A stretch of DNA of 64,000 nucleotides, from the NCBI GenBank assembly GCA_045804225.1, contig JBJMNO010000024.1:132815-196814 (forward strand), in the 5' to 3' direction. The notes beneath the pieces were generated by a model. It ran no database searches. It was given only the letters and a program-made list of their open reading frames with translations, and had not been told where the DNA came from. The translations under genes were made by a program, and so were the position numbers. Source of the stretch: Gemmatimonadaceae bacterium. Lineage in GTDB: Bacteria; Gemmatimonadota; Gemmatimonadetes; Gemmatimonadales; Gemmatimonadaceae. Below, one piece after another: positions 2,037-51,244 of this stretch (its first letter is position 1; each line of letters starts with the position of its first letter).

Positions 2037-4493
2037 TCAGGTTCGCAGCGCGCCTAAGGGGTCGATTCGGCTCGCCCGCGCCGCCGGCATCCAGACGGCG
2101 ACCAGGGCGATGAGGGCAAGCAGCAGCGGTACACCGATGAACACGAGCGGATCCCGCGCTTGCACGCCGAATAAGAAGTTGCTCATGTACTTCGCGAGCG
2201 CGTACGCTGCCGCGACGCCGATCACCACGCCGATACCCGCCAGTCGCATCCCCTGCAACACGACCATCCATCGCACCGCCGCCGGCTCGGCGCCGAGCGC
2301 CATGCGCACGCCAATTTCCCGCGTGCGTTGCTGTACCGCGTACGCCATCACGCCATAGATCCCGATCGACGCGAGCGCCAGAGCCGACAGCGCGAACACC
2401 GTCATCAGCAACGTGTTGAATCGCTCGCGCGAGGTAGAGCGGGCGACGATCTGGCTCATGGAACGAATGTCGGCAACGGGCAAACCCGTCGCCTGACGGA
2501 GCTGGGTTTGCGCTCCCGCGCTCAGCGAGAGCGGCGAGACACTCGTGCGAATCACCCAGACCATCGGGGCGATGCGCGTGTTCAGCGCGTTCACGGGATC
2601 AGGCACCTGAGCTTGCGGTACGAACATCTTGGGACTCGGGTCTTGATTGAGGCCGTCGTCCCGGCTGTCCGCCACGATGCCGATGATCTGGCGATCCGGC
2701 TCGGTTGCAAACTCCTTCATGCCACCGCGGCCGATCACGAGCCGCTCGTTGAGCGGATCACCTGTCTTCCAGAACTCCTTGGCCATCGCCTGATTGATGA
2801 TCACGACGGGCGGCGCGGCTTTGTCATCGAGATCGGTGAACGTACGGCCCCGTATCGCCGGAATCTTGAAGACCTCGAAGTAGCCCGGCGACACGGTGGT
2901 CCAGTCGCCGCCGCCATGGAACTGCCCTTGCTCGAGCGGCCGTCCGAGGATCTTGAAGGGCAGCCCGTAACCACCCTCGAGAGGGACACAGCACGCGGCA
3001 CTCGCGGCGACAACGCCCGGAAGCATTCGCAAACGCTCAACACCAGCACGGATCGCCTGTTCCACGGACGCTGCCGTCTGGAAGCGCGGGCCGGTGAACG
3101 ACATGCTCATCGTCAAGACGTTGGTGGCGTCGAAGCCCGGTGCCACCGCCTGGAGCGCCAGCGAGGTGCGAATGAGCAATCCCGATCCGATCACGAGCGT
3201 AAGCGCCAGCGCGATCTCGAGCACGACGAGTGCCGAGCGCACACGCGCTGTGCGCCCTCCACCGGACGAGCCGGTGCCGTCTCGCAATGTGCCACTGAGG
3301 TCTTCGCGCGACGCATGCAACGCGGGCATGGCCCCGAACAGCAACCCGGTTCCGATCGACACGACCGCGGTGAAGGCGAGTAATCGCCAGTCGAGCTGCA
3401 CCGCCGATCCGTGCTCGCCCACGCGCGGCAGCCCGGCCGTGTTGATCGACAACAGCGCCCGAATGCCGAACAAACCCAACACCAGTCCGAGCGCACCCCC
3501 GATGACGGCGAGCAGCACGCTTTCGGTGACGAGCTGTCGAATGATGCGGCCTCGCGCCGCGCCCATGGCCGCGCGAATAGCCATCTCACGTTTTCTCACG
3601 GTCGAGCGCACGAGGAGGAGATTCGCGACGTTGGCGCATGCGATCAGCAGCACCCCGCTAACGGCGGCGAGCAGCACGATCAGCAACGATTGCGAATTCC
3701 GGACGAAGATTTTGTGAATGGGCGCGACGCTGAAGCTCGCATCCTTTGGGATGCCATTTGGGATGCGCGCACGATACTCGTCGGCGGATTGACGGAGCCT
3801 CGCCTGCGCTTGCGCGAGCGTCACACCTGGCTCGAGACGTCCGGCGGCCCGGAAATAGTGCGCGCCGTCCATCGTGTTCGGGTCGATCTGAAAGTCGGTC
3901 CAGACTTGGGGTGGGTCGATGAACTCCGATGGATCGAAACCGCGGTCGAGCACTCCGATCACGACATACGGGTCGCCACTGAGCTGAATCGTCTTGCCGA
4001 TGATTGCCGGGTCTGATGCGAAGCGTCGCGTCCACCACCCGTAGGACAACACGGCGACGCGTGGACCATTCGGCCGGTCCTCATCCGCCGAGAACGTGCG
4101 TCCCAGCAGCGCGCGGGCACCCCACAAACGGAAGAAGGCCTCGCTCACGTTGCCGGAGTTGACCTGTTCCGGAATCTCGCCCCCGGTATAGTTGACGAGG
4201 ACATTCCGAAATGCGGATGCGTCTTGCACCACTCCGGTTTGCCGGCGCCAATGCGCGAATTCGGCCGGTGACGCCCCCGGCCCCGATCCGTTCGGCGACG
4301 TGTTCATGAACATCACGATCCGATCGGGTGCGGGGTAAGGAAATGGGCGCAGGAGGATGGCATTGACCACCGAGAAGACGGCCGTCGTGGCGCCGATGCC
4401 GAGGGCGAGTGCCGCCAGGGCGGCGAAGGTGAACGCACGCTGCTGGCGTAAAGTGCGCAGCGAATATTTGAGGTCCTGGAGAAATCGCTCCAT
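2037..4493 (-). CDS. ADOP-family ABC transporter permease (MacB/FtsX-like, duplicated FtsX domains)
   Basis: Track ORF 2037..4520. The likely start is MERFLQDLKYSLRTLRQQRAFTFAALAALALGIGA (ATG 4493), the typical ADOP N-terminus. It has a large periplasmic domain and two FtsX 4-TM blocks. Paralog of 61022..63709. Confidence 0.9.
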   Translation of the reverse strand: MERFLQDLKYSLRTLRQQRAFTFAALAALALGIGATTAVFSVVNAILLRPFPYPAPDRIVMFMNTSPNGSGPGASPAEFAHWRRQTGVVQDASAFRNVLVNYTGGEIPEQVNSGNVSEAFFRLWGARALLGRTFSADEDRPNGPRVAVLSYGWWTRRFASDPAIIGKTIQLSGDPYVVIGVLDRGFDPSEFIDPPQVWTDFQIDPNTMDGAHYFRAAGRLEPGVTLAQAQARLRQSADEYRARIPNGIPKDASFSVAPIHKIFVRNSQSLLIVLLAAVSGVLLIACANVANLLLVRSTVRKREMAIRAAMGAARGRIIRQLVTESVLLAVIGGALGLVLGLFGIRALLSINTAGLPRVGEHGSAVQLDWRLLAFTAVVSIGTGLLFGAMPALHASREDLSGTLRDGTGSSGGGRTARVRSALVVLEIALALTLVIGSGLLIRTSLALQAVAPGFDATNVLTMSMSFTGPRFQTAASVEQAIRAGVERLRMLPGVVAASAACCVPLEGGYGLPFKILGRPLEQGQFHGGGDWTTVSPGYFEVFKIPAIRGRTFTDLDDKAAPPVVIINQAMAKEFWKTGDPLNERLVIGRGGMKEFATEPDRQIIGIVADSRDDGLNQDPSPKMFVPQAQVPDPVNALNTRIAPMVWVIRTSVSPLSLSAGAQTQLRQATGLPVADIRSMSQIVARSTSRERFNTLLMTVFALSALALASIGIYGVMAYAVQQRTREIGVRMALGAEPAAVRWMVVLQGMRLAGIGVVIGVAAAYALAKYMSNFLFGVQARDPLVFIGVPLLLALIALVAVWMPAARASRIDPLGALRT

Positions 4494-8456: not shown

Positions 8457-11297
8457 TTAAGCTGCTCCGAGTCGTGCGAGCGCCTGCCGCGCTTCAGCGA
8501 CGAAGGGCACGAGATCCCGATCGGGCTGAGTGAATGCGTCAAGGAAAGCGCGCCAATGTTTCACCGCCTCGTCACGCCTGCCCAACGTGGAATACCATTG
8601 CGCCAGTCGCCGATGGGCGAACGGCAGCACGAGGCCGCGCAGCGCGTACTCCTGGGCGGGCATGCGTTGCGGCGTGATTGCCAGCTCGAGAAAGGCAGCG
8701 GCCGAGTCGGCGCGGCCACGTCTCGCGTACGCCTCGGCGGCGAGCCAGCGCATCGAGAGGCTACCCACCCGGTCGAGCAGCGCGCTGTCGTTCTCTCCGG
8801 TCGCCGCGACGGGCGCAATCTTGTCCGTCGCCGACGTCCATCGACCTGCACGCGTGTCGATCCACGCATCGATGAGGCGTGGCCCGTTGCCAAGACGGCG
8901 CAGATCCTCCGCCGACGCCGCGTTCACGCGCGAAAGCAGGGCACGTGCGCGAACGGTGTCGTTGGCGATCGCCGCACCGAGCGCCGCGGTCGCGCGCCCG
9001 GCGATGCTGGTATCGGAGGCGAGCTCGTTAGGCAGCGGTGGCACGGCGCGGCCGCTCGCGGCAGCCAGCAGCAGACGGTCGCGGTAGTACCATCGCTTCG
9101 CGTCCGGCGTCGCTCCGGCGGCCGCCCGGGCAAAGATGCTGTCGGCCGCGCTCACGGCACCGCGAACTGCCTTGCTGCTCGCCGACGTAGCCGTTGCCTG
9201 AACGCGCAACAACCCCGGTGACGATGGAGCGCTCGCCGCGGCGGCGCTAACGCTGTCCGCGTCTCCCCACGCGTCCGTCGCGGCGTCGAGCATCAGGCGG
9301 ATTTCCGTCGCGAAGGGCCCAGAGAGATCGCCCATCGTTTGCCGGGCTTCGGCGAACTGCCCGAGCGTGATCTGCGTCGCCGCCTTGTTCATCACCTGGA
9401 TCTGCGCGCGCTTGGGACCGAACGGATGCGCAGCGACCGCACGGTCGAACGACTCGAGCGCATCCTCGTACCTGCCTAACGCCATCAGATACGAACCGCG
9501 ATTGTTGTATGCCGCCCAGGACCGCGGCGACTCCGCGAGGAACAGGTCATAGGCGTTGATTGCCGCCGGCAGATCGTAGTTGAGCGTGTACGCGACGTCC
9601 GCGTCGAGCCGATAGCGCTGCAGGTCGGCCAATCGCGTTTCGAGTTTCTTGGCCCGGCCGAAAGCCCAGCGCGCCGAGTCCAGCGTTCGGTCGTTGAGGT
9701 AATTCCAACCCATCGAGAGCCACGCGGACGCGAAACCCGTGTCGAGGGCGATCGCCTCACGCAGCAACCGATTGCTTCCGCGCCCGTCGCCTCGTGTTTG
9801 GAGGCGGAGACCTTCTACATATAGCCGAAAGGCGGCAAATGAGGGTGTCGCCGCCTGATAGAGCGGTACTGTCGCCTCGATCGATGCGCGGCGCTCGCCC
9901 AGTCCTGACCGTACCTCTCGCGCCAAGCGCTGCACGGTGGTCACGAGACTGCTGTCATGTGCGGCGCCGGCAACCGACACGATGTCCGCACCGTCGTCCG
10001 CGTCGATGACGTGAAGGACGATTGAGTAATTGCTGCTTCCCAGGTGCGTGATGCTTCCCACGAGCACGGCCCGTACCGCACTGCGGTAGGCGAGCTCGCG
10101 CGCCAGCTGCGGTCCAACGGTGGTCGTATCCGGAAGTCCGGCGAGACGCATCGTGGTGTTCAACTGCGAGCGAGGCAGCGTGCTCACGAACCGCGACTGA
10201 TTGAGCTCGGCGGTCGTAAGCTCACGGACGGCGGTGGCGAGCTGTGGGTCGTCATTCGGTCCGTCGAAGTCAGCGACGAGAATCCAGTCGCGCTCGCGAA
10301 ATCGCGTGGAGACGGATGACCGACGCTCCAACGCGACGTCGGCGGCGATCGCAACGACGATCGCCACGGCGGCGACCGCCATCCACCGGCGTCCCTTCGT
10401 TCGTCCGAGCCAGCCAAAAGAACGTTGCCTAACGGGCAGCTCCCCGGACGAATCCAACTCCAGCGAGGTACCTTGTAGTGCGCGCGCCATCTCTCCGGCG
10501 GTGCGGTAGCGGTCGGCCGGCTCGAGCGCCACCGATTTCGCGAGAATCGCGCTGAGCGCGGGCGATACGGTGGGCCGATAGACGCGAACGTCGCGCGGCG
10601 CGTGCACGAACCGCTGGGCAATCACCGACCCGATGGTCGCGCCAACGAACGCGGGCACACCGGCAAGCATCTCGTAGAGCACGCAGCCTAACGAGAAAAC
10701 GTCACTGCGGCCGTCATAGTCGCGATCGCCGCTTGCCTGTTCGGGGCTCATGTATGCTGGCGTCCCACGGACGATGCCGCTCGTCGTCGACGTTTCGCCG
10801 AGGGCACGTTCGAAGACGCGGGCGATACCAAAATCCGTGAGACAAGGCTGGCCGCCGGTGAAGAGAATGTTCTCCGGCTTCACGTCGCGGTGGATGAGGC
10901 CATGCTGATGCGCATGATCGAGCGCATCGGCAATCGTGCGCGCAATGGATATCGCGTCTGCGATGGCGAGCTGCTTCTCGCTATTCAGCTTCTCGCGCAA
11001 CGTGCCGCCATCCAAATACGGCAGCACGAGGTAGAAGCGATTCTCGTACTCGCCTTCGTCGATGACGCCGACGATGTGCGGATGCTGCAAGGCGGCGGTG
11101 CTGCGAATTTCGCGCAGGAAGTGACGAGCGGCGGTGGTCTCGCTGAGCTCCTGGCGCAGGATCTTGATCGCGACGTATTGGCCGCGTTCGGTATCGCGCG
11201 CGAGATACACCGTCGCCGTTGCGCCGCGACCGAGCTCACGCTCGATGACATAGCGACGTGCAAACTGTCCCGTAAGGACGTCAGCCGGACTGCGCAC
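8457..11297 (-). CDS. Ser/Thr protein kinase with one TM segment and a large C-terminal TPR-like domain
   Basis: Hanks kinase motifs GRGATATVYLA, HRDVKPENIL, DFG, SPEQ and SLGCVLYEML. A TM helix (WMAVAAVAIVVAIAADVAL) is followed by about 600 aa of TPR-like helical repeats. Confidence 0.9.
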   Translation of the reverse strand: MRSPADVLTGQFARRYVIERELGRGATATVYLARDTERGQYVAIKILRQELSETTAARHFLREIRSTAALQHPHIVGVIDEGEYENRFYLVLPYLDGGTLREKLNSEKQLAIADAISIARTIADALDHAHQHGLIHRDVKPENILFTGGQPCLTDFGIARVFERALGETSTTSGIVRGTPAYMSPEQASGDRDYDGRSDVFSLGCVLYEMLAGVPAFVGATIGSVIAQRFVHAPRDVRVYRPTVSPALSAILAKSVALEPADRYRTAGEMARALQGTSLELDSSGELPVRQRSFGWLGRTKGRRWMAVAAVAIVVAIAADVALERRSSVSTRFRERDWILVADFDGPNDDPQLATAVRELTTAELNQSRFVSTLPRSQLNTTMRLAGLPDTTTVGPQLARELAYRSAVRAVLVGSITHLGSSNYSIVLHVIDADDGADIVSVAGAAHDSSLVTTVQRLAREVRSGLGERRASIEATVPLYQAATPSFAAFRLYVEGLRLQTRGDGRGSNRLLREAIALDTGFASAWLSMGWNYLNDRTLDSARWAFGRAKKLETRLADLQRYRLDADVAYTLNYDLPAAINAYDLFLAESPRSWAAYNNRGSYLMALGRYEDALESFDRAVAAHPFGPKRAQIQVMNKAATQITLGQFAEARQTMGDLSGPFATEIRLMLDAATDAWGDADSVSAAAASAPSSPGLLRVQATATSASSKAVRGAVSAADSIFARAAAGATPDAKRWYYRDRLLLAAASGRAVPPLPNELASDTSIAGRATAALGAAIANDTVRARALLSRVNAASAEDLRRLGNGPRLIDAWIDTRAGRWTSATDKIAPVAATGENDSALLDRVGSLSMRWLAAEAYARRGRADSAAAFLELAITPQRMPAQEYALRGLVLPFAHRRLAQWYSTLGRRDEAVKHWRAFLDAFTQPDRDLVPFVAEARQALARLGAA

Positions 11298-11362: not shown

Positions 11363-11474
11363 TGGTGCGTGGTGCGTGGGCGAGATAAGACTTCGCGCGG
11401 CGCGCGGCGCGCGCCACGCGCCACGCGCCACGCGCCACGCGCCACGCGCCACGCGCCACTCTACCCTCAACCCG
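11363..11474. repeat. Tandem heptamers: (GTGGTGC)x2 at 11363-11380, then (GCGCCAC)x7 plus TCTACCC at 11411-11474
   Basis: Read directly. On the minus strand it follows the hydrolase stop (11478-11480) as GGGTTGA GGGTAGA (GTGGCGC)x7. The two blocks are mutually complementary. Confidence 0.9.
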
Positions 11475-11477
11475 CTT

Positions 11478-12713
11478 TCAGCGCGGGGTCGCCTGGGTGA
11501 CGTTAGGTCTCTCGCAGCCGTTCGAATCGTCGAGGCAGCTGTCCACGACGCGAGCGACGGCCGACGCCCAGGTCTGGCCCGACGCGTCGAGACCGGCGTT
11601 CGAGAGCACGACGATCGAGAGGCCATTCTCCAGCAGCCGCACGACACTGCTCTGGCCGACGCGCACGTCATAGCCGGAGTGCCAGACTTCGCGACGTCGA
11701 TCGCCCTGCATATAGATGCGGTCGCCAAACGAGTAGTACACGTCGTTGCCGCCCTCGCGGCGAACCAGCACGTGACCACGCCCCAGCTCCTGCGCCGACC
11801 GTTGGGAGAGGATCTTCCCGGCGCGAAGAGCACGCGCCCACTTCAGGAGGTCGCCGGCGGTGCCGACGAGACCCGTCGCGCCGCGATCCGCCCAGTCTAC
11901 CGGTGTACTTCCACCGCTGCATGGAGGCGGCACGGCCGGCGCATTCGCCGACGGCGCGACCGTTACGCGCGCCGAGAGCCGGCCGCAGAAGCCAGTATGC
12001 GTGAGACCGGCGGGAATGAGCAGCGTCCGCTCGACGAACGCTTCGAAAGGCACTCCAGCGACAGTCTCCACGACCGCGGCCAGCAGCGTGTAGTCCTCGT
12101 CCTCGTAGTGGTAGGTCTCGCCTGGCTGGCCACGAAGCGGCTCGGAAAGGATCGCGCGAACCGCCGCCTCCCGATCAGTCACGCCCTCCGCCGAGCCGGA
12201 TGGTGCGACACCCGACGTGTGCGTGAGCAGTTGCTCAACGGTGATCGCCCGCGCGTCGCGCGGCAGCCGACGGAAGAAATGGTAGAGGGAATCGCTGACG
12301 GAGAGCTTACCCTGGTCCACCAGCTTCATGATCGCGGCGGCGGTGAATTGCTTGGTCGTTGATGCGAGCCAGAAGGCGCTCTCGGTCGTTAGGCGCCGGC
12401 CTCCCGCCGGCAGGTACGCGCGATTCAGCAGTACCTTGTTCCCGCGCTCCACCAGCACGACGCCGGAGAATTTCGCGGAGTCGGCGAGATGTCGCAGCCA
12501 CTTGTCGAGCGCCTTTTCATCCCACGTCCTGTCATCCTGAGGAGCGAAGCGACGAAGGATCTGCTGTTGCTCCGGGCTCGCGCCGCGGCCGAACAGCAGA
12601 TCCTTCGCTTCGCTCAGGATGACAGGGCGGGCTTCGCTCAGGATGACAGGACGGGCATCGCTCAGGATGACAACTGAGGCGGCAACCGCCAACGCGCGGA
12701 TGTGGGGAATCAT
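11478..12713 (-). CDS. Serine hydrolase (beta-lactamase/PBP4-like family); the 5' region is traversed by REP repeats
   Basis: S-x-x-K motif (ASTTKQFTAAAI) and a typical class-C-like fold sequence. The N-terminal 60 aa (..VILSDARPVILSEARPVILSEAKDLLF..) are encoded by the REP locus 12531-12671. Confidence 0.75.
   Translation of the reverse strand: MIPHIRALAVAASVVILSDARPVILSEARPVILSEAKDLLFGRGASPEQQQILRRFAPQDDRTWDEKALDKWLRHLADSAKFSGVVLVERGNKVLLNRAYLPAGGRRLTTESAFWLASTTKQFTAAAIMKLVDQGKLSVSDSLYHFFRRLPRDARAITVEQLLTHTSGVAPSGSAEGVTDREAAVRAILSEPLRGQPGETYHYEDEDYTLLAAVVETVAGVPFEAFVERTLLIPAGLTHTGFCGRLSARVTVAPSANAPAVPPPCSGGSTPVDWADRGATGLVGTAGDLLKWARALRAGKILSQRSAQELGRGHVLVRREGGNDVYYSFGDRIYMQGDRRREVWHSGYDVRVGQSSVVRLLENGLSIVVLSNAGLDASGQTWASAVARVVDSCLDDSNGCERPNVTQATPR
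12531..12671. repeat. REP/MITE-like locus: inverted arms 12531-12568 and 12592-12623, plus two extra 24-nt tandem units (12624-12671)
   Basis: The arms are GTCATCCTGAGGAGCGAAGCGACGAAGGATCTGCTGTT and AACAGCAGATCCTTCGCTTCGCTCAGGATGAC. They are followed by ..CTTCGCTCAGGATGAC and ..ATCGCTCAGGATGAC. Confidence 0.85.
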
Positions 12714-19089: not shown

Positions 19090-19776
19090 TCAGAAGGAGG
19101 ATTGGATCTGCCCAACGCGTTCCGCGTCCCTGCCGTCCGGCCGCGCACCGTGTTCCATGAGCAGATGTATAATCTTCCGCTGCTCCTCGGCGGAGGCGGT
19201 GCTGCCGCTGCCGGTGCGCCCGGTGTTGTGGACGGCCAAATGCAGCGGCGTGGAACCACTCCCATTCTTGCGCCGCGGATCGGCGCCGTGGGCGAGGAGA
19301 ACGCGAACCGCCGCGGTACAGCGCGTGCGAACCGCCTTGTGCAGCGGCGTCACTCCACTGTTGTCTACCGCATTTGGGTCGGCGCCCGCGTTCAGTAACA
19401 AGGTAACGACAGCTGCCTGCGACTTCGGCGCCCATGTCGTTGAACCAGGCTGTCCAACGGACGCGTAATGTAGCGGTTGCGCGCCGCGGCGATTGTTTGC
19501 GCTCACGTTCGCACCATTGGCGATGAGCTTCTTCGCCATCTCTGTTCGGTACGCCGCCGCCGCGACGTGAAGCGCCGTGTCGCCCACGTAGATGTGATGT
19601 CCGATCTCCTCGACGAAATACGGTGTCGACGAGCTGCGGGTCGCTCCAACGCGCGATGCTTCCGACGCGAGCTCTGGAAACTCCGCGAGCAAGTGCGACG
19701 CGCGTGTGGTGTCACCGGTGGCGATGGCGCGGAGGAGACTCCAGAGCTCCGTCTTTCTTACCTCTCGAGAATTCAT
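19090..19776 (-). CDS. Ankyrin-repeat protein
   Basis: Repeated GDTALHVAA.., RGAQPLHYA.., GVTPLHKAV...LLAHGADP and GSTPLHLAV motifs. Confidence 0.8.
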   Translation of the reverse strand: MNSREVRKTELWSLLRAIATGDTTRASHLLAEFPELASEASRVGATRSSSTPYFVEEIGHHIYVGDTALHVAAAAYRTEMAKKLIANGANVSANNRRGAQPLHYASVGQPGSTTWAPKSQAAVVTLLLNAGADPNAVDNSGVTPLHKAVRTRCTAAVRVLLAHGADPRRKNGSGSTPLHLAVHNTGRTGSGSTASAEEQRKIIHLLMEHGARPDGRDAERVGQIQSSF

Positions 19777-19967
19777 GCTAGTGGTCTGAGGCGTCGCGGC
19801 GAGATGGCAGCCATCAGTTCGGGCTCATTCAAGGTGGCGAAACAGGCATTGCACCCGATAGAGCACGGAGGTGATTGAGAAGAGCAGAGGTGGTCTCAAC
19901 CGGTCGATGCAACACTTTCTGCATCCATTGCTGAATCGCAGATAACGCGGATAGCAGCGACCAAAGC

Positions 19968-20023
19968 AACAGCAGATCCTTCACAGCGCCAGTCCTCGAG
20001 AGAAGCGAATTGCTCAGCATGAC
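19968..20023. repeat. Degenerate REP-family arm
   Basis: AACAGCAGATCCTTCACAGCG...GCTCAGCATGAC, with an internal insertion. Confidence 0.55.
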
Positions 20024-20189
20024 CGGTGGGCTGTAGCTCGGCGGTGTGCAGGTCCCAGAACAGCGTCCGGGCTCGTGGCGAAGGGAGCGCGATCGGCCGA
20101 GGGACAGATCCGTGCAATCCGACAGATCCGTGAAATCCGTATTCTCCTGGTTGTGTCGCTCTTCTCTCAGCTCCGAAAAGCAGAGGTGG

Positions 20190-20232
20190 CAATCGGTCGA
20201 TGCAACACTTCGGGTGTTGCGTCGACCGATTG
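20190..20232. other. Near-perfect 19-20 bp hairpin capped by a TTCG tetraloop
   Basis: CAATCGGTCGATGCAACAC-TTCG-GGTGTTGCGTCGACCGATTG, with one T/C (G-U type) mismatch. Confidence 0.8.
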
Positions 20233-20240
20233 AACTCACC

Positions 20241-20265
20241 GATCCTTCGCTTCGCTCAGGATGAC
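20241..20265. repeat. Partial REP-family arm (GATCCTTCGCTTCGCTCAGGATGAC)
   Basis: Read directly. Confidence 0.8.
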
Positions 20266-20310
20266 ATTGGGGGGTCAAGGGTGACATTGGGCCCCAGGGT
20301 GATACTCGGG

Positions 20311-20359
20311 CCAAAACGAAGATCACCATGCACAGGCTTCTGGCCCACGCATGGTGATC
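20311..20359 (-). terminator. Putative intrinsic terminator of the SusC/SusD operon
   Basis: 11-bp stem GATCACCATGC (20321-20331) pairs with GCATGGTGATC (20349-20359), followed on the minus strand by TTCGTTTTGG (20311-20320). It lies just after the post-stop heptamer array. Confidence 0.5.
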
Positions 20360-20360
20360 A

Positions 20361-20419
20361 CCCACAACCCACAACCCACAACCCACAACCCTCTACCCTC
20401 TACCCTCTACCCTCTACCC
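20361..20419 (-). repeat. Tandem heptamers (CCCACAA)x4 (CCCTCTA)x4 CCC, equal to minus-strand (GGGTAGA)x4 (GGGTTGT)x4 GGG
   Basis: Read directly. Starts 3 nt after the SusD stop. Gives nine G3 tracts with 4-nt loops. Confidence 0.9.
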
Positions 20420-20422
20420 AGT

Positions 20423-21874
20423 TCAGCTACCAATCGCGCACGGCACCGTGAGGCGTCGTGCGTCACACTCGGCAGAGGGGATGAGCATATTCGGATGAAC
20501 CACGTCGCCCGCCCGGTCCAGCGGCAGCGTCGCCAATCGCCCGTACCGGCGCGCGTCGATCCACCGCGTGCCCTGCGTCCACATCAGCGAATAGGTGCGG
20601 TTGTAGAGCAGCTCGTCGACGAACGCAGCATCAGGGCTCGCGGCAGTGAGCGTCGTGGGCGCGAGACCGCCGGCGTTCACCCGCACGAGATTGATGTCGT
20701 TGATGGCTCCCGCCTTGTTGGCGGTGTTCCAACGAATCTCGGCGCGGAGCAGCAGCAGCTCCTCGTTCGTGATCCATGGAACGTCGGCTCCCGGATCGGC
20801 AGCGAGCGTCTCCGGGTCGTTGTACATCACCGGCTTGTACGTCCCGGTCAGGTTGTTCAGTGTTCGCGGTGTCGGCGCCAACGCGACCTTCGTGGTGAGC
20901 CGAAGATCGGGCTCGCCGTTTGGACGCAGCTGCGCGCCGGAGATGATCGAGGGGTGCACCCAATACGTGTTGGACTCCAGTACATCCGATACCGGGTTCG
21001 AAAGCTCGTTAGGTGCGCCGGTGTAGCCGAAGTAGACCCCCAGCTTCAGCGACGCCGGAAGCCCAGCCTCGGTGATGAATGATTGGTTGATCGCCGTCGA
21101 GGCCTGTCCCCAGCACGCCGCGCAGTTCACGAACGTTGCGCGATGCACGAGGAGCTTCGCCGCGAGCGCGCGATTGAACTGCGCGAACGTAGCGGGGGTG
21201 GTGAACCCCGTGTAACCGGGAACGAACGAGAATGGGAAGCTGCTGCCGCCAGCCAGAAGATCGGCGTAGCCCTGGTCGAAGAGTGCGGATGCCGCGGCCA
21301 TCGCGTCCGTCATCGACACGAGCGGCGCAGGCGGATCGGTGAGAGGCCGATCGACGTCGATCGGAATGCCCGTCGGCCCGCTCCGAATTGCAAGAATGTG
21401 CAAATGCCACGCTTTGATCGTCTCCGCGAATCCAAGCGCTGCCTTCTTCTCTTGCGCGGTCAGCGCGCTCGCGTTGGTCAGGGCGGCCACGTAGACGTTG
21501 ATCGTTCGGATCGCCTGGTACTGGCCGCTCCAAATGCCGCCGGCCCGTCCACCCGGATCCTGCGGTCCACGGATCTCCTCTCCCGTCTCGCGTGGATCGT
21601 TGCCGAGCAGATTCCAGCCCTCGCGGCCGTAGATGCCCCACTGCTGGATGATCGACGGAAGGTCGTTGAAGGCCTGCGTCTGAATGCCAACCGCCGCACG
21701 CGAAAGCACGTCCCGCGATGGCGACGAGCTCAGTGTTTCGGCGGTTGGTGAGTTGAGATTTTGCACATCGAAATTGTTGCACGCCGCGATCAGGACACCG
21801 GCGGCGGCGAGAAGTGTCAACACACGGCGCCTTCGCGGCATCACCGTGCGGATCTGTCGAGTCGTCGTCGTCAT
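20423..21874 (-). CDS. SusD/RagB-family outer-membrane lipoprotein
   Basis: Track ORF 20423..22003. The start MTTTTRQIRTVMPRRRRVLTLLAAAGVLIAACNNF (lipobox) at 21874 overlaps the SusC stop as TGATG. The sequence is RagB/SusD-like throughout. Confidence 0.85.
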   Translation of the reverse strand: MTTTTRQIRTVMPRRRRVLTLLAAAGVLIAACNNFDVQNLNSPTAETLSSSPSRDVLSRAAVGIQTQAFNDLPSIIQQWGIYGREGWNLLGNDPRETGEEIRGPQDPGGRAGGIWSGQYQAIRTINVYVAALTNASALTAQEKKAALGFAETIKAWHLHILAIRSGPTGIPIDVDRPLTDPPAPLVSMTDAMAAASALFDQGYADLLAGGSSFPFSFVPGYTGFTTPATFAQFNRALAAKLLVHRATFVNCAACWGQASTAINQSFITEAGLPASLKLGVYFGYTGAPNELSNPVSDVLESNTYWVHPSIISGAQLRPNGEPDLRLTTKVALAPTPRTLNNLTGTYKPVMYNDPETLAADPGADVPWITNEELLLLRAEIRWNTANKAGAINDINLVRVNAGGLAPTTLTAASPDAAFVDELLYNRTYSLMWTQGTRWIDARRYGRLATLPLDRAGDVVHPNMLIPSAECDARRLTVPCAIGS

Positions 21875-24819
21875 CAGAACCCCACCGAGAAGTCGAAGAA
21901 GAAGCTGCGGCTCGGCGGATACGGAGCCACATCGAGATTGTTGCGGATGGCGGCAGAGCCGACGTTCGCTACTTCGGGATCGAGCCCGGAGTATTTCTGC
22001 CACGTGAGCAGGTTCCGGCCGCTCACGCCAACGCTGATGTTGCGCGCACCGAGACCGGCGCGGTTCACCCAGGATTGGGGAAGGGTCGCGCGAAGGCTCA
22101 CCTCACGAACCTTCAAGAACGAGGCGTCCTCGATGTACGGCGTCATCACGCCGCCATTGTAACCCTTCATTCGATACTGCCATGCGGGCGAGCCGTAGTC
22201 GGCCGAGAGCCCGGCGTCGTCGTAGAGAAACTGCGTGAGGTTGATGATGTCGCCGCCGTGCTGGTAATCGAGCACGACGTTGAGCCCGAACGGCCCGTAC
22301 GTGAGGTCGTTCACGAGGCCCATCCGGTAGTCGGGAGCCGAATTGCCGATCTGGACGTCGGTGGTGGTGCGGTTGCCGCTCGCATCGAATGCGCGCCCGA
22401 CAATCTGGGTCAGCGGCTTACCCTCCTGAATGAACGTCACGCCCAAACCACCGAATCCGGAGAGGGGCGGACGGAACGGAGGTAGACCGGCAAGGTCTTT
22501 CACCTCGCTCGTGTACCGAGTGTACGTCGTTCGGACGAGCCATACGGTGTTCGCGCGCTGCACCGGCGTGATGCCGAGCGACGCCTCGATCCCGCGGTTC
22601 TCGATCCGTCCGCCGTTGAACACCTGGCTGGTGAAACCGGTGGATGGTGCCGGCACGCGCTGCAGCAGCAGGTTGGTCGTGTTGCGGTCGAAGCCGGTGA
22701 GCTCCCAGGTGAGTCGGCTGTGCAACGCGATGCCGTCGATGCCGACCTCTATCTCTTTCACCCGCTCCGGCTCGACACCTGAGAAGCCGGCGTCTGTCGC
22801 GACGGTGAATCCGGACACACTACCGAGTTGCGGCGTGCCGAGCTGGGTGAACTTCTGGCCGAAGATGGGGAGATTGCCTGTCTCGCCGTAGGCGATGCGC
22901 GGCTTGAGCTCACTGCCCGAGCCGAGCAGGCCGAGGATGCGATAGGAGGCGGAGATCTTCGGGAAGATGTTGTACTTCGCGACGTCACCGTCCACGCTGC
23001 TTCGCTCGGCGCGCAGACCGGCTTGCACGAGCAGCAACTCGTTGAGCAGTCGAATTTCCTCCTGCCCATAGAAGGCGAAGGTGCGCTCCTGCGTGAGGTT
23101 CTGCGTTCCCGTGGTGTTGGTTCCCTGGCCGACGAACCGCTCTCCAGGAATCAGGTTCGTCGTCTCGATGCGGCTCGTGGCGAGCTGGCGATCTTCATAC
23201 TGAAGACCGGCCGACGTATTGAGGGACCAGCCGCGGCTGTGAAAGATGTGCACCGCGTTGGCGTTCCAGTTGTAGTACTTGCTGTCGCCGTCGTTGTCGA
23301 TCGCCGCACCTGGCAGGGTTACCGGCTGCTCGAAGAACAGCTCGTTAGGCGCCCACAGCTGATTGTTCTGATGGAAGATGTCGAGTCCTCCCGCGGCGAC
23401 GAAGCGGAGCGACTGCGTCGTGGTGTTGAGCGCGTTGTAATCCATGGTCATGCCGCCGGTGAAGCGGTTCGTGACTTCATGGTTCTTCGCGAGATCGTCC
23501 GTCTGCAGCTGATTGGCGTGGATTCCCCAGTCGGGCGCAACGTAATTGCCGGTGGCATCACGCTGGCGCAGGTCGACGAAGCTGGGAGTGTACGCGAAGG
23601 CGTAGCCACCGCAGGCGAAGTTGTTACAGTTGTTGTTCCAGCCGCGATCGTTGGCGGCGCGGTTGAAGACGCTCGACACGTGCACACCGATCTTCGCGCC
23701 GAGGTCCTGATCGATGTTGGCGCGGAGCCCCTGGCGATCGAAGCCCGTGTTTCGCTCGATGCCGCCGTCGTGCTTGTTGGTGACGCCGAGGAAATAGCGC
23801 GTCCGGTCCGTGCCGCCTGTTACGTCGGCAACGGTCTCGTAGGAGAGGTTGCTGGGCGTGTATGCCTGATCGTAGTGGTTGAAGTACGGGTTCGGATTGT
23901 TGTCGAACCAATGCGCGATCCCCTGGCCGTACTTGGCTACTGCGTCGGTCTCGGTGAAGTGCCGGCTCTCGAGCGTCCTGGATGGCCGGAATTGGCCGAG
24001 CCGCTGCTGCAGCCGCACGCTGCTTTGGCCGGCCTGTCCGCGCCGCGTCGTGATGATGACGACGCCGTTCGCGGCCTTCGAGCCGTAGATCGAGGAAGCC
24101 GCCGCGCCCTTGAGGATCTCGATGTTCTCGATGTCGTTGGGGTTGATGTCGGCGACGCGGTTCACGGCATCGTCCTCGGCGGTCGCGAACGCGGCGGCCG
24201 AGATATCGCCGCGGCCGCTCGCGACACTGGCGTTGGAGTAGATCACGCCGTCCACCACGTAGAGCGGATCGTACGCGCCCAGGATGGTGTTGTTGCCGCG
24301 GATCTGCATCTGGATGCCGCCTCCGGGTGCACCGGAGTTCGACTGCAGGTTCACGCCGCTGATCTTGCCGACGAGTGCGTTCTCGATGGTGGGAGCTGCG
24401 ACTTGGGTGAGCTCTTCACCGGAGACGCGCGCGACGGCCGTTGTCGCACTCCGGACGTCGACGGTCGTCGCCTGGCCAGTGACAACGACGCTCTCGAGCA
24501 GAAGCGGATCCTTGTCGAGAGCGAAGTCGGCCGTGTTCACGCTCGCGTCGACGGGCCGTGAAACGCGCTTGTAGCCGAGTGCGCGGACGAGGAGGGTGAT
24601 GTTGCCATTCGGTGCCGCGAGCCGGAACTGGCCATTGGCGCCAGCGCGAGCGGTTGCCGCGGTACCGGGGACAGAGACGGTCGCACCCGGCAGCGGCTCG
24701 GCGGTGCCCGCGATGGTGACGGTGCCGGTGATGATACGTGATTGAGCGCGACTGACAGCTGGGAGCAGCACGAGGAGCGCTGCCGCAGTGACTGCCAGAC
24801 GCGAGAGGGGTCGTCGCAC
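21874..24819 (-). CDS. SusC/RagA-type TonB-dependent receptor
   Basis: 981 aa with a signal peptide and an N-terminal carboxypeptidase-regulatory-like domain (ITGTVT..AEPLPGATVSV). The plug region reads DPLYVVDGV, and the C-terminal beta-barrel ends ...FFFDFSVGF. Confidence 0.9.
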   Translation of the reverse strand: MRRPLSRLAVTAAALLVLLPAVSRAQSRIITGTVTIAGTAEPLPGATVSVPGTAATARAGANGQFRLAAPNGNITLLVRALGYKRVSRPVDASVNTADFALDKDPLLLESVVVTGQATTVDVRSATTAVARVSGEELTQVAAPTIENALVGKISGVNLQSNSGAPGGGIQMQIRGNNTILGAYDPLYVVDGVIYSNASVASGRGDISAAAFATAEDDAVNRVADINPNDIENIEILKGAAASSIYGSKAANGVVIITTRRGQAGQSSVRLQQRLGQFRPSRTLESRHFTETDAVAKYGQGIAHWFDNNPNPYFNHYDQAYTPSNLSYETVADVTGGTDRTRYFLGVTNKHDGGIERNTGFDRQGLRANIDQDLGAKIGVHVSSVFNRAANDRGWNNNCNNFACGGYAFAYTPSFVDLRQRDATGNYVAPDWGIHANQLQTDDLAKNHEVTNRFTGGMTMDYNALNTTTQSLRFVAAGGLDIFHQNNQLWAPNELFFEQPVTLPGAAIDNDGDSKYYNWNANAVHIFHSRGWSLNTSAGLQYEDRQLATSRIETTNLIPGERFVGQGTNTTGTQNLTQERTFAFYGQEEIRLLNELLLVQAGLRAERSSVDGDVAKYNIFPKISASYRILGLLGSGSELKPRIAYGETGNLPIFGQKFTQLGTPQLGSVSGFTVATDAGFSGVEPERVKEIEVGIDGIALHSRLTWELTGFDRNTTNLLLQRVPAPSTGFTSQVFNGGRIENRGIEASLGITPVQRANTVWLVRTTYTRYTSEVKDLAGLPPFRPPLSGFGGLGVTFIQEGKPLTQIVGRAFDASGNRTTTDVQIGNSAPDYRMGLVNDLTYGPFGLNVVLDYQHGGDIINLTQFLYDDAGLSADYGSPAWQYRMKGYNGGVMTPYIEDASFLKVREVSLRATLPQSWVNRAGLGARNISVGVSGRNLLTWQKYSGLDPEVANVGSAAIRNNLDVAPYPPSRSFFFDFSVGF

Positions 24820-25134
24820 GAGGCCTCCCTACGCGAAAGGGCTATGAAGAATGATCAAAAGGACAGAGCGAGAATCCACCGTGGGCACGCCGATGTCAAG
24901 GACAGTTGCGGAGAGGGACGAACCGTGATATTCGGCGTTGCGGTCGCCGCTCTTGGCCGGCTGGGGTCGTTAGGCGACTCTTGTGCGAGTGTTGTCCGAG
25001 TGAATTACCCGTCTCGAACTTCGACACACGATACGCTGGTACGCGGTCTTGTATCGCAGGAGCTCAGAACGTGTCGTTCGATTGAAAGCTGTTTCCCGGG
25101 ATCGCGAGCACCTCTTTCTGGGCCAAAACGCGTT

Positions 25135-25978
25135 CCGCTGGAACGAAAGTCCGTTCCGCCGCAAGAGACTTCGCACCGCGAAAGCTCGAATCCGTTCCGC
25201 GACAACGCATACTCTTCCGCGAGCAGTAGAAGCTCGTGCGGCAATTCGAAAGTCGATCCGCTGAAATGCACGCGCGAACCCGAAGGAGCGTGGCACGCGC
25301 CGCTCACTCGCGCGCGCTTTCCTCCGGAACTCGGCTCCAATCCGCCGCTTTAAACGCGCTCCGCTGGAACTGAAGCTCTGTCCGCCGCACCGCGTAGCGC
25401 GCCGCCGGATTGAAAGTTCGTCCGGCGGATGAAATGTCTGGCCGCGAGATCTGGATCGGTGCCGCGGGATCGCGCACGCCAACCGCAACATCGCACACGT
25501 CGCTCGCTACAATGCGCCGTTGACCCGCGCAACGCGCACAGTGACCGAAGGTTCTGAAGTGCGATCCATCGGAACGCGCAGTCGCTCTTCGAGATTCAAA
25601 GCGACGCCGCGACAACGCAGACACGCATCGCTCGATCGTACAGCCGCATGGCGAGCACGCGCATGCGCGCCTTGAAAATTCGCACTCGCACCGCTGCGAC
25701 GCGCACGCTCACCGTTCATCGCGCACACGCACCGCGACGATAACAACGGCATCGCGACAACGCGCACGCGCATCGGCACTACGCGCAGTCGCACCCCCAC
25801 AATGCGAATGCACATGGCTGCGACGCGCAGGGGCATCATCCATTCGAACACGCGCACCGCCGACTTCTCACGCGCACCGCTCATTTCTTGCTCTGCACCG
25901 CTGATTCCTCACTTACACCGCCGATTCCTCACTTGCACCGCTAATTCCTCACTCGCCACCGCCCATTTCTCACCGGAG
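25135..25978. repeat. Degenerate tandem array with 20-21 nt period (about 18 phased units at 25135-25500, a degenerate middle, and 6 well-conserved units at 25851-25978)
   Basis: CCGC recurs at 25135, 25156, 25176, 25197, 25217, 25258, 25300, 25342, 25361, 25382, 25402, 25442, 25462 and 25483, and again at 25857, 25877, 25898, 25918, 25938 and 25959. The last units have the consensus CACCGCNGATTCCTCACTTR. No credible ORF. Confidence 0.7.
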
Positions 25979-26143
25979 AATGATGATGCTGACAACGAGC
26001 CTGCTGCTCGCGCGACCGCCTCACGCTGACCGACAGCTTGACCCCGATCAGCGCGGTCACTTTCGCACTTCTCGCTCGACCACGGCCACTGCGACGCGCA
26101 CGGTGGCCGCTCTTTGCCCCAGACCTTTTATATAGGATGGGTG

Positions 26144-26650
26144 CTATGGGAATTGCGCTGTGCGCGCCGCCGCCAGGAATTGAAGCAGCCCATCTGGTGA
26201 GGCGCTCTCCGTCATGAATTCCATCATGGTGTTCCCGCGCGGAAAGCCAGCGAACGCGAAGTAATGACCGCGAGGCGCGCGCCCGCTCCTCGAGTACTGT
26301 CCCGTGACGAGCAATGCGCGACGTCCCTGGAACTCGTCTTCGCATTGCTGGACGCCAATCGCGTCGGCACCGAGCCTGAGACTGTCAATCGGATGCGACC
26401 CATACTCGAGGCTCCAATCCAGATCCCCCCAAGCCGTGACAATCTTTCCGCAAGCCGTGTCAAAACAGTGAACTGCGACCTCTTTAGCTCCGGCCGGCAA
26501 GCGCATTCGGAAGCGGTAATCGGCAGGGGTGAAGTCGACCCACCCAGCCGTATCGACCTGCGATATCGCGCACGGCGCCGGAATCTTTGCGTCGGTCGAC
26601 TGGATCGCGCAGGCGAGTGCGAGAGTGAGTGCGGAAGGAGTAAGTCGCAT
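26144..26650 (-). CDS. Hypothetical lipoprotein
   Basis: MRLTPSALTLALACAIQS is lipobox-like. 168 aa, no recognisable family. Begins 3 nt after the AraC gene stop. Confidence 0.5.
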   Translation of the reverse strand: MRLTPSALTLALACAIQSTDAKIPAPCAISQVDTAGWVDFTPADYRFRMRLPAGAKEVAVHCFDTACGKIVTAWGDLDWSLEYGSHPIDSLRLGADAIGVQQCEDEFQGRRALLVTGQYSRSGRAPRGHYFAFAGFPRGNTMMEFMTESASPDGLLQFLAAARTAQFP

Positions 26651-26652
26651 CG

Positions 26653-27609
26653 TTACGAATTGTCCGACATCCCCAGTTCGCGGACTTCACGCGGCGACAC
26701 ACCGAAGCGGCGACGGAAGCTCCGATTGAAGTAGGATAAGTCGTTGAAGCCCACCTCGTATGCGACTTCGGCGATGCGTCGGCCGGCGAAGCGCGGGCTG
26801 AGCAACATCGAGCGCGCGCGCTTGAGCCGCTCCTCGCGCACGAACTCCGTCATGCTCATGCCTTCACTCTCGAACAACATGCCCACATACCGAGCGCTCA
26901 GCCTGTGCCGCGCTGCGACCTCGCCGAGCGAGAGGTCGTTCTCGAGACGTGCGAGGATGTCGGCCTTGATCGCGTGCAAGCGACCAGCTCGAACGCCCCG
27001 ACCATTCGCGATCTCCTCCGCCTCACGACCGGCGCCGACGGCCATCGCCGCCAGATCGTAGATGTGGGCGATGGCTAGCTGCGGAAGGCTTGCGGCGCCG
27101 ACGCCATCATTCGTCAGAGCAGCCCGTATGTAGCCGCGAAGTAACCGGAGTGGCAATGAGTGTTTCGGTATTCGCCGCGCGCAGTTGCGTTGCGGCTGTT
27201 CGAGCAAAGGAAGCAGCTTTCCCTGTGGAAAGTCGAGGGTGAGAACTCGACCGGTTTGCAGGGTCGTTAGGCTGCCAGGATCCGAGCCCGAGAGGGCGAT
27301 GGCGTCGCCTCGCTCGAGCACGAGCTCTCGGCCGAATTGCGTGGCGACCGCCGGGCCACCCAAGTTGAGCATCAACCTATCGCTTCCGTCCGCGAACTCG
27401 GACTTGAGCGGTGACCGCCGACCGTGCAACAACCCGAGCTCCGGGAATCTCACGAGCAGCGCGTCGATCCAGAGAGGCTCGTTAGGCCGCGGCTCCACGT
27501 GAATCTGGCCACGTCCGTGCATCTCGCGGAACATCTCGATACGGTCGCGCTCCGGCCAATCCGCGGTGCGGATTCTGACCAGACGCGCCAGAGCGCGCGG
27601 ATTCTCCAT
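26653..27609 (-). CDS. AraC-family transcriptional regulator
   Basis: The C-terminal double HTH reads LSLGEVAARHRLSARYVGMLFESEG...IAEVAYEVGFNDLSYFNRSFRRRFGVSP. Start chosen at MENPRALARL (ATG 27609). Confidence 0.85.
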   Translation of the reverse strand: MENPRALARLVRIRTADWPERDRIEMFREMHGRGQIHVEPRPNEPLWIDALLVRFPELGLLHGRRSPLKSEFADGSDRLMLNLGGPAVATQFGRELVLERGDAIALSGSDPGSLTTLQTGRVLTLDFPQGKLLPLLEQPQRNCARRIPKHSLPLRLLRGYIRAALTNDGVGAASLPQLAIAHIYDLAAMAVGAGREAEEIANGRGVRAGRLHAIKADILARLENDLSLGEVAARHRLSARYVGMLFESEGMSMTEFVREERLKRARSMLLSPRFAGRRIAEVAYEVGFNDLSYFNRSFRRRFGVSPREVRELGMSDNS

Positions 27610-27743
27610 GGAGCCAGCATCGCGCACGCGGAACCTCGCTATTCGCGTTGTCTCAACACTTCCGTTCAGTCCAAGAAACACTTCCTTTGCGTCCAAGACT
27701 GGCTCGATCCGTGAGCACACATTGCGGCGAAAACGGAGTCGCA

Positions 27744-44301: not shown

Positions 44302-44841
44302 ATGATTCGCGCTTTCTCGCACCGGTCGTTGTTCTTGACGCTCGCCATCGTGCTCGCGCCCTTCGCGGTGCAGGCGCAGGCAACAGGCGGCGTCACCTGC
44401 AAAGACGGCACGACGTCCGCGGCAACCGGCCGTGGCGCGTGCTCGGGTCATGGCGGCGTCGACAAGTCGAAAGCCGCCAAGTCCGACGCGAAGGTCGCCA
44501 AGGCCGACGCGAAAGCGAGCAGCAAGGCAGCGAAAGCCGACGTCAAGGCCGACGCGAAGAACACGAAGGCTGAAGTGAAGGCCGACACCAAGTCCACCCC
44601 GAAGTCCGCGACGAAATCGACGAAGGCTGCCGAGAAGGTGACGAGCAAGACGGTGTCGTCTGATGTGCGAGAGACGGGGAAGGCCGCGAACGCAACCGCG
44701 GCGCCGACGCGAACGACGGCCGTTAATACCGATCCGACCGACGCGACGGCCAAGTGCAAGGATGGCACGTACTCGCACGCGGCGACGCATCGCGGTGCCT
44801 GCTCGCGCCACGGCGGTGTGGCGCAGTGGCTCAAGTCGTAG
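44302..44841 (+). CDS. Secreted protein with two DUF3761 domains joined by a Lys/Ala/Asp-rich linker
   Basis: Signal peptide MIRAFSHRSLFLTLAIVLAPFAVQAQ. The two domains are CKDGTTSAATGRGACSGHGGV and CKDGTYSHAATHRGACSRHGGV. Confidence 0.75.
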   Translation: MIRAFSHRSLFLTLAIVLAPFAVQAQATGGVTCKDGTTSAATGRGACSGHGGVDKSKAAKSDAKVAKADAKASSKAAKADVKADAKNTKAEVKADTKSTPKSATKSTKAAEKVTSKTVSSDVRETGKAANATAAPTRTTAVNTDPTDATAKCKDGTYSHAATHRGACSRHGGVAQWLKS

Positions 44842-44890
44842 AGGGTAGAGGGTAGAGGGTAGAGAGTGGCGCGTGGCGCGTGGGTAGAAT
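44838..44890 (+). repeat. Tandem heptamers (GTAGAGG)x3 GTAGAGA (GTGGCGC)x2 GTGGGTAGA
   Basis: Read directly. Includes the TAG stop (44839-44841) of the DUF3761 gene. Confidence 0.9.
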
Positions 44891-45270
44891 GCGCGGAGTG
44901 ATGCAGAACGCGCAGAAAGAAGAGCGTCAAACTCTTGAGGCTTGTCGCGGTGTCGAGGGAACGCCTGTCCGCTGATACCACTGACACGGCGCTGACACCA
45001 CTGACGGGTTCCATGTGCGAGCTTCGCTCCTCTCGCCAAATCACCTTGTGAATTTGTGAATGCCTCGGGAAGCTTCTTGAAGCCCGAGGCATTTGAACAA
45101 AAGGTTATTTGCTCACGTGGTCCATGGAGCCGTCGATGCTGAGGAGCACGTCAGTGGTCTCAACGGCAGGGTCAGCGGCGTCAGCGTCCTCGGGCCATCT
45201 GGAATTCGACGAAAAGCTTTCGACGAAAGACTCTCGGTGAACGCTCGTATCTCTCCGAGCTCTGCGCTTC

Positions 45271-45331
45271 CGCCCCGCGCCCCGCCACACGCCACACGCC
45301 ACGCGCCACTCTCTACCCTCTACCCTCTACC
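45271..45331 (-). repeat. Inverted copy of the same composite: minus-strand (GGTAGAG)x3 (GTGGCGY)x4 GGGGCGCGGGGCGG
   Basis: Read directly. Starts right after the stop (45333-45335) of the GNAT-like gene. Confidence 0.9.
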
Positions 45332-51099: not shown

Positions 51100-51244
51100 T
51101 CTGAGGAGCGGAGCGACGAAGGTTCTGTTGATCCTCGCTCCATTCGCGTCGGCAGGTTCGGCTCACTTGGAAAAGCAGATCCTTCGCTGCGCTCAGGATG
51201 ACGGGCGAGTCGCTCAGGATGACGGGCGAGTCGCTCCGGGTGAC
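51095..51244. repeat. REP/MITE-like locus: inverted arms 51095-51130 and 51171-51202, plus two extra 21-nt tandem units (51203-51244)
   Basis: The arms are GTCATTCTGAGGAGCGGAGCGACGAAGGTTCTGTTG and AAAAGCAGATCCTTCGCTGCGCTCAGGATGAC. They are followed by GGGCGAGTCGCTCAGGATGAC and GGGCGAGTCGCTCCGGGTGAC. Confidence 0.85.

Follow-up and report, generated by a model that had tools for sequence, protein, structure and literature searches.

The window, by which we mean the whole 64,000-nt stretch of DNA that was analyzed (G+C 63.7%), contains a SusC/SusD pair and, further upstream on the same strand as SusC, a gene for an AraC-family regulator (Table 1). Orthologues of the SusC protein at 92–55% identity all come from Gemmatimonadota MAGs, and the organism belongs to the Gemmatimonadaceae. 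The gap between the GTG start of SusC and the stop codon of a 168-aa ORF (24820–26143) measures 1,324 nt and contains a long tandem array. Laid out by dynamic programming, this array fills 25130–25975 with ~41 consecutive head-to-tail units of 19–22 nt each (mean 20.6) that keep a single phase throughout.

Table 1. Features at and around the SusC/SusD locus. Coordinates are those of the window unless another locus is named.
Feature	Position	Strand	Remarks
SusC-like TonB-dependent receptor	21874..24819	-	GTG start at 24819; CarbopepD_reg + Plug
SusD-like gene	20423-22003		after SusC
Short SusC leader	24820..24870	-	GGGAGG Shine-Dalgarno 6 nt before GTG start
Putative SusC promoter	24871..24899	-	TTGACA 24899-24894, 17-nt spacer, GATTCT 24876-24871
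Non-repeat spacer, promoter to array	24906..25129	.	88.3% identical to L139; absent from all other relatives
Whole tandem array	25130..25975	.	+ strand consensus gcAcgCGCaCCGCggaAaCG; phased core CCGC (GCGG on - strand)
Sub-array A	25130..25498	.	18 units, consensus CGnTCCGCnGGAtCG.A
Sub-array B	25499..25851	.	17 degenerate units, CGCGCAC/CGACAACGC-rich, period 21
Sub-array C	25852..25975	.	6 units CACCGCNGATTCCTCACTT, non-core identity 68%
Distal array flank	25976..26100	.	90.2% identical to L139, abutting AraC stop there
Window-specific segment	26101..26650	-	absent from L139; carries 168-aa ORF 26144-26650
AraC-family regulator	26653..27609	-	AraC_binding_2 + HTH_18; syntenic with array only in window and L139
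Candidate AraC operator	27655-27698
Candidate operator in relatives	L139 ~735-780; L141 ~4445-4480; L142 ~4050-4085; L143 ~3215-3250
CGCTCAGGATGAC(A) copies	12611, 12635, 12659, 20253, 38259, 48739, 51190, 51211	+
CGCTCAGGATGAC(A) copy	34998	-
CGCTCAGGATGAC(A) tandem copies	12607-12672, 51190-51248; L048 9363-9441, L049 17429-17522
Heptamer microsatellites	11410-11459, 20360-20420, 44838-44864, 45270-45309		(CGCGCCA)7, (ACCCACA/ACCCTCT)8.7, (GTAGAGG)3.9

The gene coordinates of the original prediction (the SusC start at 24819, the 168-aa stop at 26144 and AraC) stand. The designation of the 168-aa ORF as a lipoprotein is weak, however: the N-terminus is lipobox-like (LALAC motif), but the coding signal, judged from the GC frame, is weak and the ORF is missing in L139, a contig of the sister lineage described below. 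The ORF has no Pfam match and no relative in the metagenome contigs; a search for contigs that encode the same protein found no record of it. The segment that carries it is an extra insertion, because the L139 sequence passes straight from the AraC stop to the match of window position ~26100. A second ORF, on the + strand at 25980–26135, follows a GGAGA Shine-Dalgarno-like sequence. We rejected it as a gene, as its GC3 is ~65% compared with 80–90% in real genes.

The periodic array is genuine. Autocorrelation of 24820–26143 peaks at lags 21, 61, 41 and 20 (z = 7.2, 6.2, 5.2 and 4.1 against block shuffles), which bears out the 20–21 nt periodicity predicted for the gap, and the same peaks are found in each of three sub-segments. 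The two top scores for lags 20, 41 and 61 in the 64-kb window (0.123 and 0.121; mean 0.022, sd 0.016) both fall in the array region and lie more than 6 SD over the window mean. The CCGC positions are phase-coherent within the array (R = 0.77 at P = 20.6), and CCGC ranks at the top of all 4-mers for phase with a Rayleigh Z of 18.8 at P = 20.6, compared with a mean of 7.0 and a maximum of 14.0 in 30 shuffles. Additionally, the rigid-period information of the array is 3.23 bits versus 1.50 ± 0.14 in shuffles. Cutting the array rigidly every 20.62 nt ignores CCGC and so avoids anchoring bias; when the pieces were aligned with MAFFT, four core columns reached 83–88% and the remaining columns 32–71%. 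TRF reports only 25849–25973 (period 20, 6.2 copies) and 25749–25806 (period 21), together ~9 units, because the array is unusually degenerate.

The individual units had been predicted with good accuracy. Eighteen CCGC positions were listed between 25135 and 25483, where CCGC is exact at 14 and the other four are variants that had been named as such; the six positions listed between 25857 and 25959 are all exact. These two groups had been described as separated by a degenerate middle. The units themselves hold up, but the break does not, as the phase runs continuously through all ~41 units.

The array can be divided into three sub-arrays, A, B and C. The CCGC core is present in 83–88% of the array units, and non-core identity among the units is 0.32 overall (0.27 for random sequence). 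Sub-array A contains a 41-nt (two-unit) higher-order repeat, with 25126–25163 and 25352–25389 being 82% identical, and sub-array C contains a 61-nt (three-unit) higher-order repeat. The units of A and C have a non-core identity of 0.24, and therefore have only the core and the unit length in common. Sub-array B is the most degenerate of the three, with the core retained in 71–76% of units. Alternating purine/pyrimidine runs are abundant in B, and the array is their densest place in the window. A stretch in the distal flank (26086–26117) still resembles a B-type unit.

The + strand of the array is C- and A-rich, with a G-C skew reaching -0.29, and the - strand is correspondingly G/U-rich. Non-core divergence between the window and L139 is also strand-asymmetric, affecting 9% of A, 12% of C, 23% of G and 20% of T on the + strand. 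This asymmetry, along with the excess of C over G, may reflect a mutation bias linked to transcription or replication.

Between the array and SusC lies a putative promoter that is shared with other species. In an alignment of the SusC upstream region from the window and nine Gemmatimonadaceae relatives, CTTGAC and GATTCT are invariant in 10 of 10 sequences and the full TTGACA occurs in eight of ten, followed by a GGAGG Shine-Dalgarno sequence and the start codon. Sequence conservation ends just upstream of the -35 element. The alignment thereby identifies a conserved TTGACA-N17-GATTCT element as the likely SusC promoter of this clade. The array is located 230–1075 nt upstream of it. Because this conserved, putative sigma-70-type promoter intervenes between the array and SusC, the array would be outside the SusC leader.

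Outside the immediate lineage, the array is absent from the loci we surveyed. We found no comparable 20–21-nt array upstream of SusC in 58 genome and 80 metagenome loci, 53 and 77 of which, respectively, include the SusC 5' end. Periodicity and CCGC-phase scans of these 138 SusC loci (1.29 Mb) revealed no second array of this kind, and in a CCGC/GCGG phase scan of 1.36 Mb the window array came first by a wide margin. Neither the rest of the window nor the ~1.3 Mb of related DNA has a stronger 20–21 nt periodicity. A protein search whose query was a shadow ORF of sub-array A, standing in for a search by DNA homology, retrieved a single 'hypothetical protein', P0001 (191 aa; JGI/ENA annotation), encoded on L139 (2456–3031) and L140 (839–1414). 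Being a shadow ORF inside the array, P0001 is an annotation artefact. The gene order on L139 and L140 is membrane protein, AraC, array, SusC. The full array was found elsewhere only in this sister lineage, and otherwise in partial contigs from soil-metagenome runs that come from three studies. The array in L139 is phased in the same way (GCGG Rayleigh Z = 17.2, P = 20.55; null maximum 8.5), and units found only in L139 also bear in-phase GCGG.

The arrangement of neighboring genes differs in L143, where the order is AraC, a 97-aa ORF, an ankyrin-repeat gene, the SusC promoter and SusC. The ankyrin-repeat gene is found beyond SusD in the window (19090–19776) and between AraC and SusC in L143 (4623–5249), which points to a local rearrangement of the SusC/SusD cassette relative to its neighbors. 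Since L143 holds the 97-aa ORF and the ankyrin-repeat gene at the site that is occupied by the array in the window, the array lies at a rearrangement junction. Two candidate insertion signatures at this junction were rejected. An 18-nt direct repeat (24941–24958 and 26101–26118, 16/18 matching) has its distal copy in the window-specific segment, and one arm of an 11-nt inverted pair, I10, lies inside the ancestral promoter spacer. Both are probably chance matches.

Two of the surveyed loci contain repeats of other kinds. L137, a low-G+C locus with a distant SusC homologue, has 21-nt tandem blocks at 914–1000 and 1195–1275 (GTTTGGAAnnnnAAATGTCAA and AGTTGGAAACNCGAAGAACAA) that are unrelated to the window array and are located 1.6–2 kb upstream of the gene. 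L014 carries (GGGAAAC)n and (GGAGAAC/GGCGAAC)n heptamer arrays at 8917–9209, upstream of the promoter of its SusC orthologue, and next to them an inverted, C-rich counterpart made of CCGTCCC/CAGTCGC repeats. L014 has another type of repeat in the equivalent position.

Comparison of the window with L139 indicates how rapidly the array changes. The SusC genes are 96.6% identical at all sites and 92.7% at third codon positions, the AraC genes 95.8% and 89.7%, and the SusC promoter and leader 95.3%. The non-repeat flanks of the array are 88.3% and 90.2% identical, and aligned positions of the array itself 85.2%. As this last value is lower than those of third codon positions and of the flanks, there is no overall purifying selection on the array. 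Indels of at least 17 nt between the two arrays measure 20, 40 and 41 nt, corresponding to whole units, with one 17-nt exception that falls in the poorly aligned 25309–25325; there are many further gaps of 1–7 nt. In the soil runs X3, X4 and X5, 111 nt at 25800–25912 are swapped for 132 nt, and the soil runs also hold a strain that is ~88% identical at 25437–25673. The array is single-copy, as its metagenome word depth is about the same as that of the flanks. As a whole, it behaves like neutral or hypermutable DNA with turnover of whole units.

On balance, we lean toward reading the array as a decaying minisatellite, specific to this lineage, that sits at a rearrangement junction upstream of the SusC promoter and is not part of the transcript. 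A decayed minisatellite was one of four roles offered in the original prediction, and it is the one best supported by the tandem anatomy, the unit-sized indels and the fast divergence. A short C-rich seed of ~20–21 nt may have been amplified head-to-tail, by replication slippage or by in-register unequal recombination, in the non-coding DNA at the junction between the AraC block and the SusC-SusD block in one soil Gemmatimonadaceae lineage. Whole units and blocks of two to three units would later have been gained and lost, with point substitutions accumulating at a rate that equals or exceeds the local neutral one. Sub-array C would then be the youngest re-expansion and B the oldest part. The in-phase tandem structure and the 41- and 61-nt higher-order repeats are as block duplication predicts, and many other intergenic tandem repeats occur in this genome and in its relatives. 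Slippage or unequal exchange is a plausible origin, and the array would have no sequence-specific function, serving at most as spacer DNA.

A minisatellite origin still needs a non-selective account of the core, because uniform decay cannot produce a core retained at ~85% within units that are otherwise near-random. We infer that new units may be born by homology-dependent, in-register exchange from units that bear the core. Jeffreys-type minisatellites of eukaryotes likewise consist of diverged units with a short GC-rich core, which is attributed to the recombination that makes the arrays and not to any role in the cell. The array resembles them in its diverged units and its GC-rich core; however, they belong to another domain of life and arise by another mechanism, and the analogy extends only to non-selective core retention. 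Loci of the mycobacterial MIRU-VNTR type are intergenic, with head-to-tail units of tens of bp, alleles that differ by whole units and fast turnover. The array shares all of these characteristics at its one locus. Unlike the usual VNTR it is long (~41 units) and very degenerate, and has a 4-nt core in strict phase. As a minisatellite it would be an ordinary bacterial one, though long and well-phased.

A rather unlikely alternative is that CCGC/GCGG is recognized by a DNA-binding protein, be it a regulator, a nucleoid-associated protein or a polymerizing ParR-like factor, which would assemble into a filament or scaffold on the upstream side of the SusC promoter. The protein would bind once per two helical turns, always to the same face of the DNA, perhaps touching a second patch ~8 bp away, at many redundant sites that are each weakly selected. 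A spacing of 20.6 bp does correspond to two turns and a single phase is held over 41 units, the core is much better conserved than the rest of the unit, and units specific to L139 retain in-phase cores. When the window is compared with L139, mismatches affect 6.5% of positions in exact cores and 15.8% of non-core positions, a ~2.4-fold slower rate for the core (Fisher p = 0.017), and unit offsets +8 to +10 are as slow as the core. It is because the core is both better kept and slower than the rest of the unit that we give a protein-binding array some weight.

However, several observations fit poorly with protein loading. The heterogeneity of substitution across unit positions between the window and L139 is marginal (chi-square p ~0.05), and CCGC is only slightly more stable than the other GC-only 4-mers of the array (8.9% versus 10.7–12.5% mismatch). 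Five of 23 exact cores (22%) differ between the window and L139, lineages that are ~96% identical, and in a third strain variant 5 of 25 substitutions fall in core positions, as expected (19%). In addition, the array overall evolves faster than synonymous sites, other species that share the conserved SusC promoter have no array, and the operator candidate of the neighboring AraC is unrelated to the units. The fuller claim, that ~40 weak, rapidly turning-over CCGC sites upstream of a promoter for polysaccharide uptake (SusC/SusD) load a candidate DNA-binding or nucleoid protein as an iteron- or centromere-like chromosomal scaffold in Gemmatimonadota, strikes us as doubtful.

Repeats placed two helical turns apart are familiar from iterons and from type II partition centromeres (the 20-bp repeats of pSK41 parC; the 19–22-bp repeats of F, P1, R6K and RK2), in which 3–14 nearly identical copies lie beside rep or par genes on replicons. 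The array also consists of direct repeats about two turns apart, so that sites would face one side of the helix. It differs from these systems in its ~41 highly diverged units and its chromosomal context, and we found no Rep or Par gene among the Pfam-scanned neighbors (AraC, TBDR, peptidases, kinase, helicase). If protein loading were true, the locus would be a rare case of a long, two-turn-phased array that loads protein on a chromosome, next to a nutrient-uptake operon, and would offer a tractable system for studying the retention of short cores in decaying tandem arrays.

The adjacent AraC-family regulator had been suggested as a protein that might bind the array. Two observations leave this link unsupported: a conserved operator candidate that does not resemble the units, and AraC orthologues that lack the array. 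The AraC gene and a gene for a 247-aa membrane protein have a divergent promoter between them, in which we identified a direct repeat, two copies of TCTTGGAC-N5-GGAAGTG spaced 22 nt apart. Its TTGGAC-N5-GGAAGT parts are conserved in four other lineages, whose AraC proteins are 78–96% identical, and it is a good candidate for the operator of this AraC. The array shows no enrichment of the motif TCTTGGAC-N5-GGAAGTGTT. Downstream of AraC orthologues at 78–83% identity (L141, L142, L143 and one further contig), the array is absent. Tandem half-sites of the AraC/XylS family, of the araI1-I2 type, usually have a 21-bp spacing, and the array, with direct repeats ~21 bp apart and an AraC gene adjacent, is similar in these respects. 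Unlike such operators, however, its units are unrelated to the two-copy candidate of that geometry at 27655–27698.

Readings of the array as leader RNA, as a mobile element or as a pseudogene are unlikely. It is highly improbable that the array is a transcribed element, either a long 5' leader of SusC, as originally suggested in structured form, or a separate non-coding RNA or sponge that carries repeated protein-binding motifs. We found no intrinsic terminator after AraC or the 168-aa ORF, so that read-through on the - strand is conceivable, and the strand composition is skewed toward a G/U-rich - strand. However, the conserved, putative sigma-70-type promoter is positioned downstream of the array, and minimum-free-energy folds are no better than those of shuffled sequences on both strands (z = +0.9 and +1.6); these two results argue against the structured leader. 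Rfam searches at E <= 10 gave only chance-level matches, no RNA run was found to contain the sequence, and GGA is not enriched on either strand (10 versus ~13 expected on the + strand, 19 versus ~20 on the - strand).

We consider it equally improbable that the array is a minisatellite borne by a mobile element and inserted upstream of SusC in the manner of a MITE. The model for this is BrickBuilt, a MITE-minisatellite of Porphyromonas gingivalis that consists of 23-nt tandem repeats, is always intergenic, reaches 19 copies per genome, and has leader and tail subunits as well as ends formed by inverted repeats (PMC4596501). The array has 20–21-nt tandem units without spacers, is intergenic and lies close to a promoter, as BrickBuilt elements do, and it is present or absent as a block between lineages at a variable junction. 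BrickBuilt is the closest published analogue, but the array lacks the features that define it: the 64-kb window has a single copy and 1.3 Mb of related loci have none, the metagenome depth equals that of the flanks, there are no leader, tail or inverted-repeat ends, and the units are far more diverged. We found no convincing terminal inverted repeats, the sole end-to-end pair being I10. Searches with the unit pattern against viral contigs and with the array against plasmids by blastn gave no match.

The least probable of these readings, to which we assign almost no weight, is that the array is what is left of a protein-coding gene that contained internal repeats and has since degraded. Long Arg-rich ORFs are present on both strands, and P0001 is annotated as a 'hypothetical protein' in a JGI metagenome. 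However, the GC-frame plot is flat over 24900–26100, whereas SusC reaches 0.85–0.93 at third positions. Eight shadow ORFs have no Pfam match at E <= 1 apart from one at chance level (E = 0.18, 12.6 bits with a cut-off of 27), in the stretch of one ORF that runs antisense to the start of SusC. For the 173-aa shadow ORF, the database search retrieved no relative other than this same array in L139/L140. The flat GC-frame plot and the lack of significant Pfam matches agree with the original description of the gap as non-coding. The period is likewise real but not that of a codon repeat, as had been noted, since neither of the higher-order periods, 41 and 61 nt, is divisible by 3. A CRISPR array, which has repeats of at least 23 nt and unique spacers of similar length, was rejected because the conserved part here is 4–9 nt within a 20.6-nt period.

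A decaying minisatellite at this position, as we favor, has some practical consequences. Annotators should be aware that the array has been labeled a 'hypothetical protein' in a public metagenome, and the array could serve as a VNTR marker for strain typing in this uncultured soil Gemmatimonadaceae lineage. A literature search on tandem repeats in Gemmatimonadetes found no relevant report.

The window contains other repeats as well. A dispersed family with the core CGCTCAGGATGAC(A) is present in nine copies in the 64 kb, sometimes as 21–24-nt tandem copies, and also occurs in distant Gemmatimonadota loci. Heptamer microsatellites are found at four positions. One of them, (ACCCACA/ACCCTCT)8.7, is situated immediately 3' of SusD, and the SusC/SusD pair therefore has repeat-rich non-coding DNA on either side. 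The region 19777–20422 looks non-coding too.
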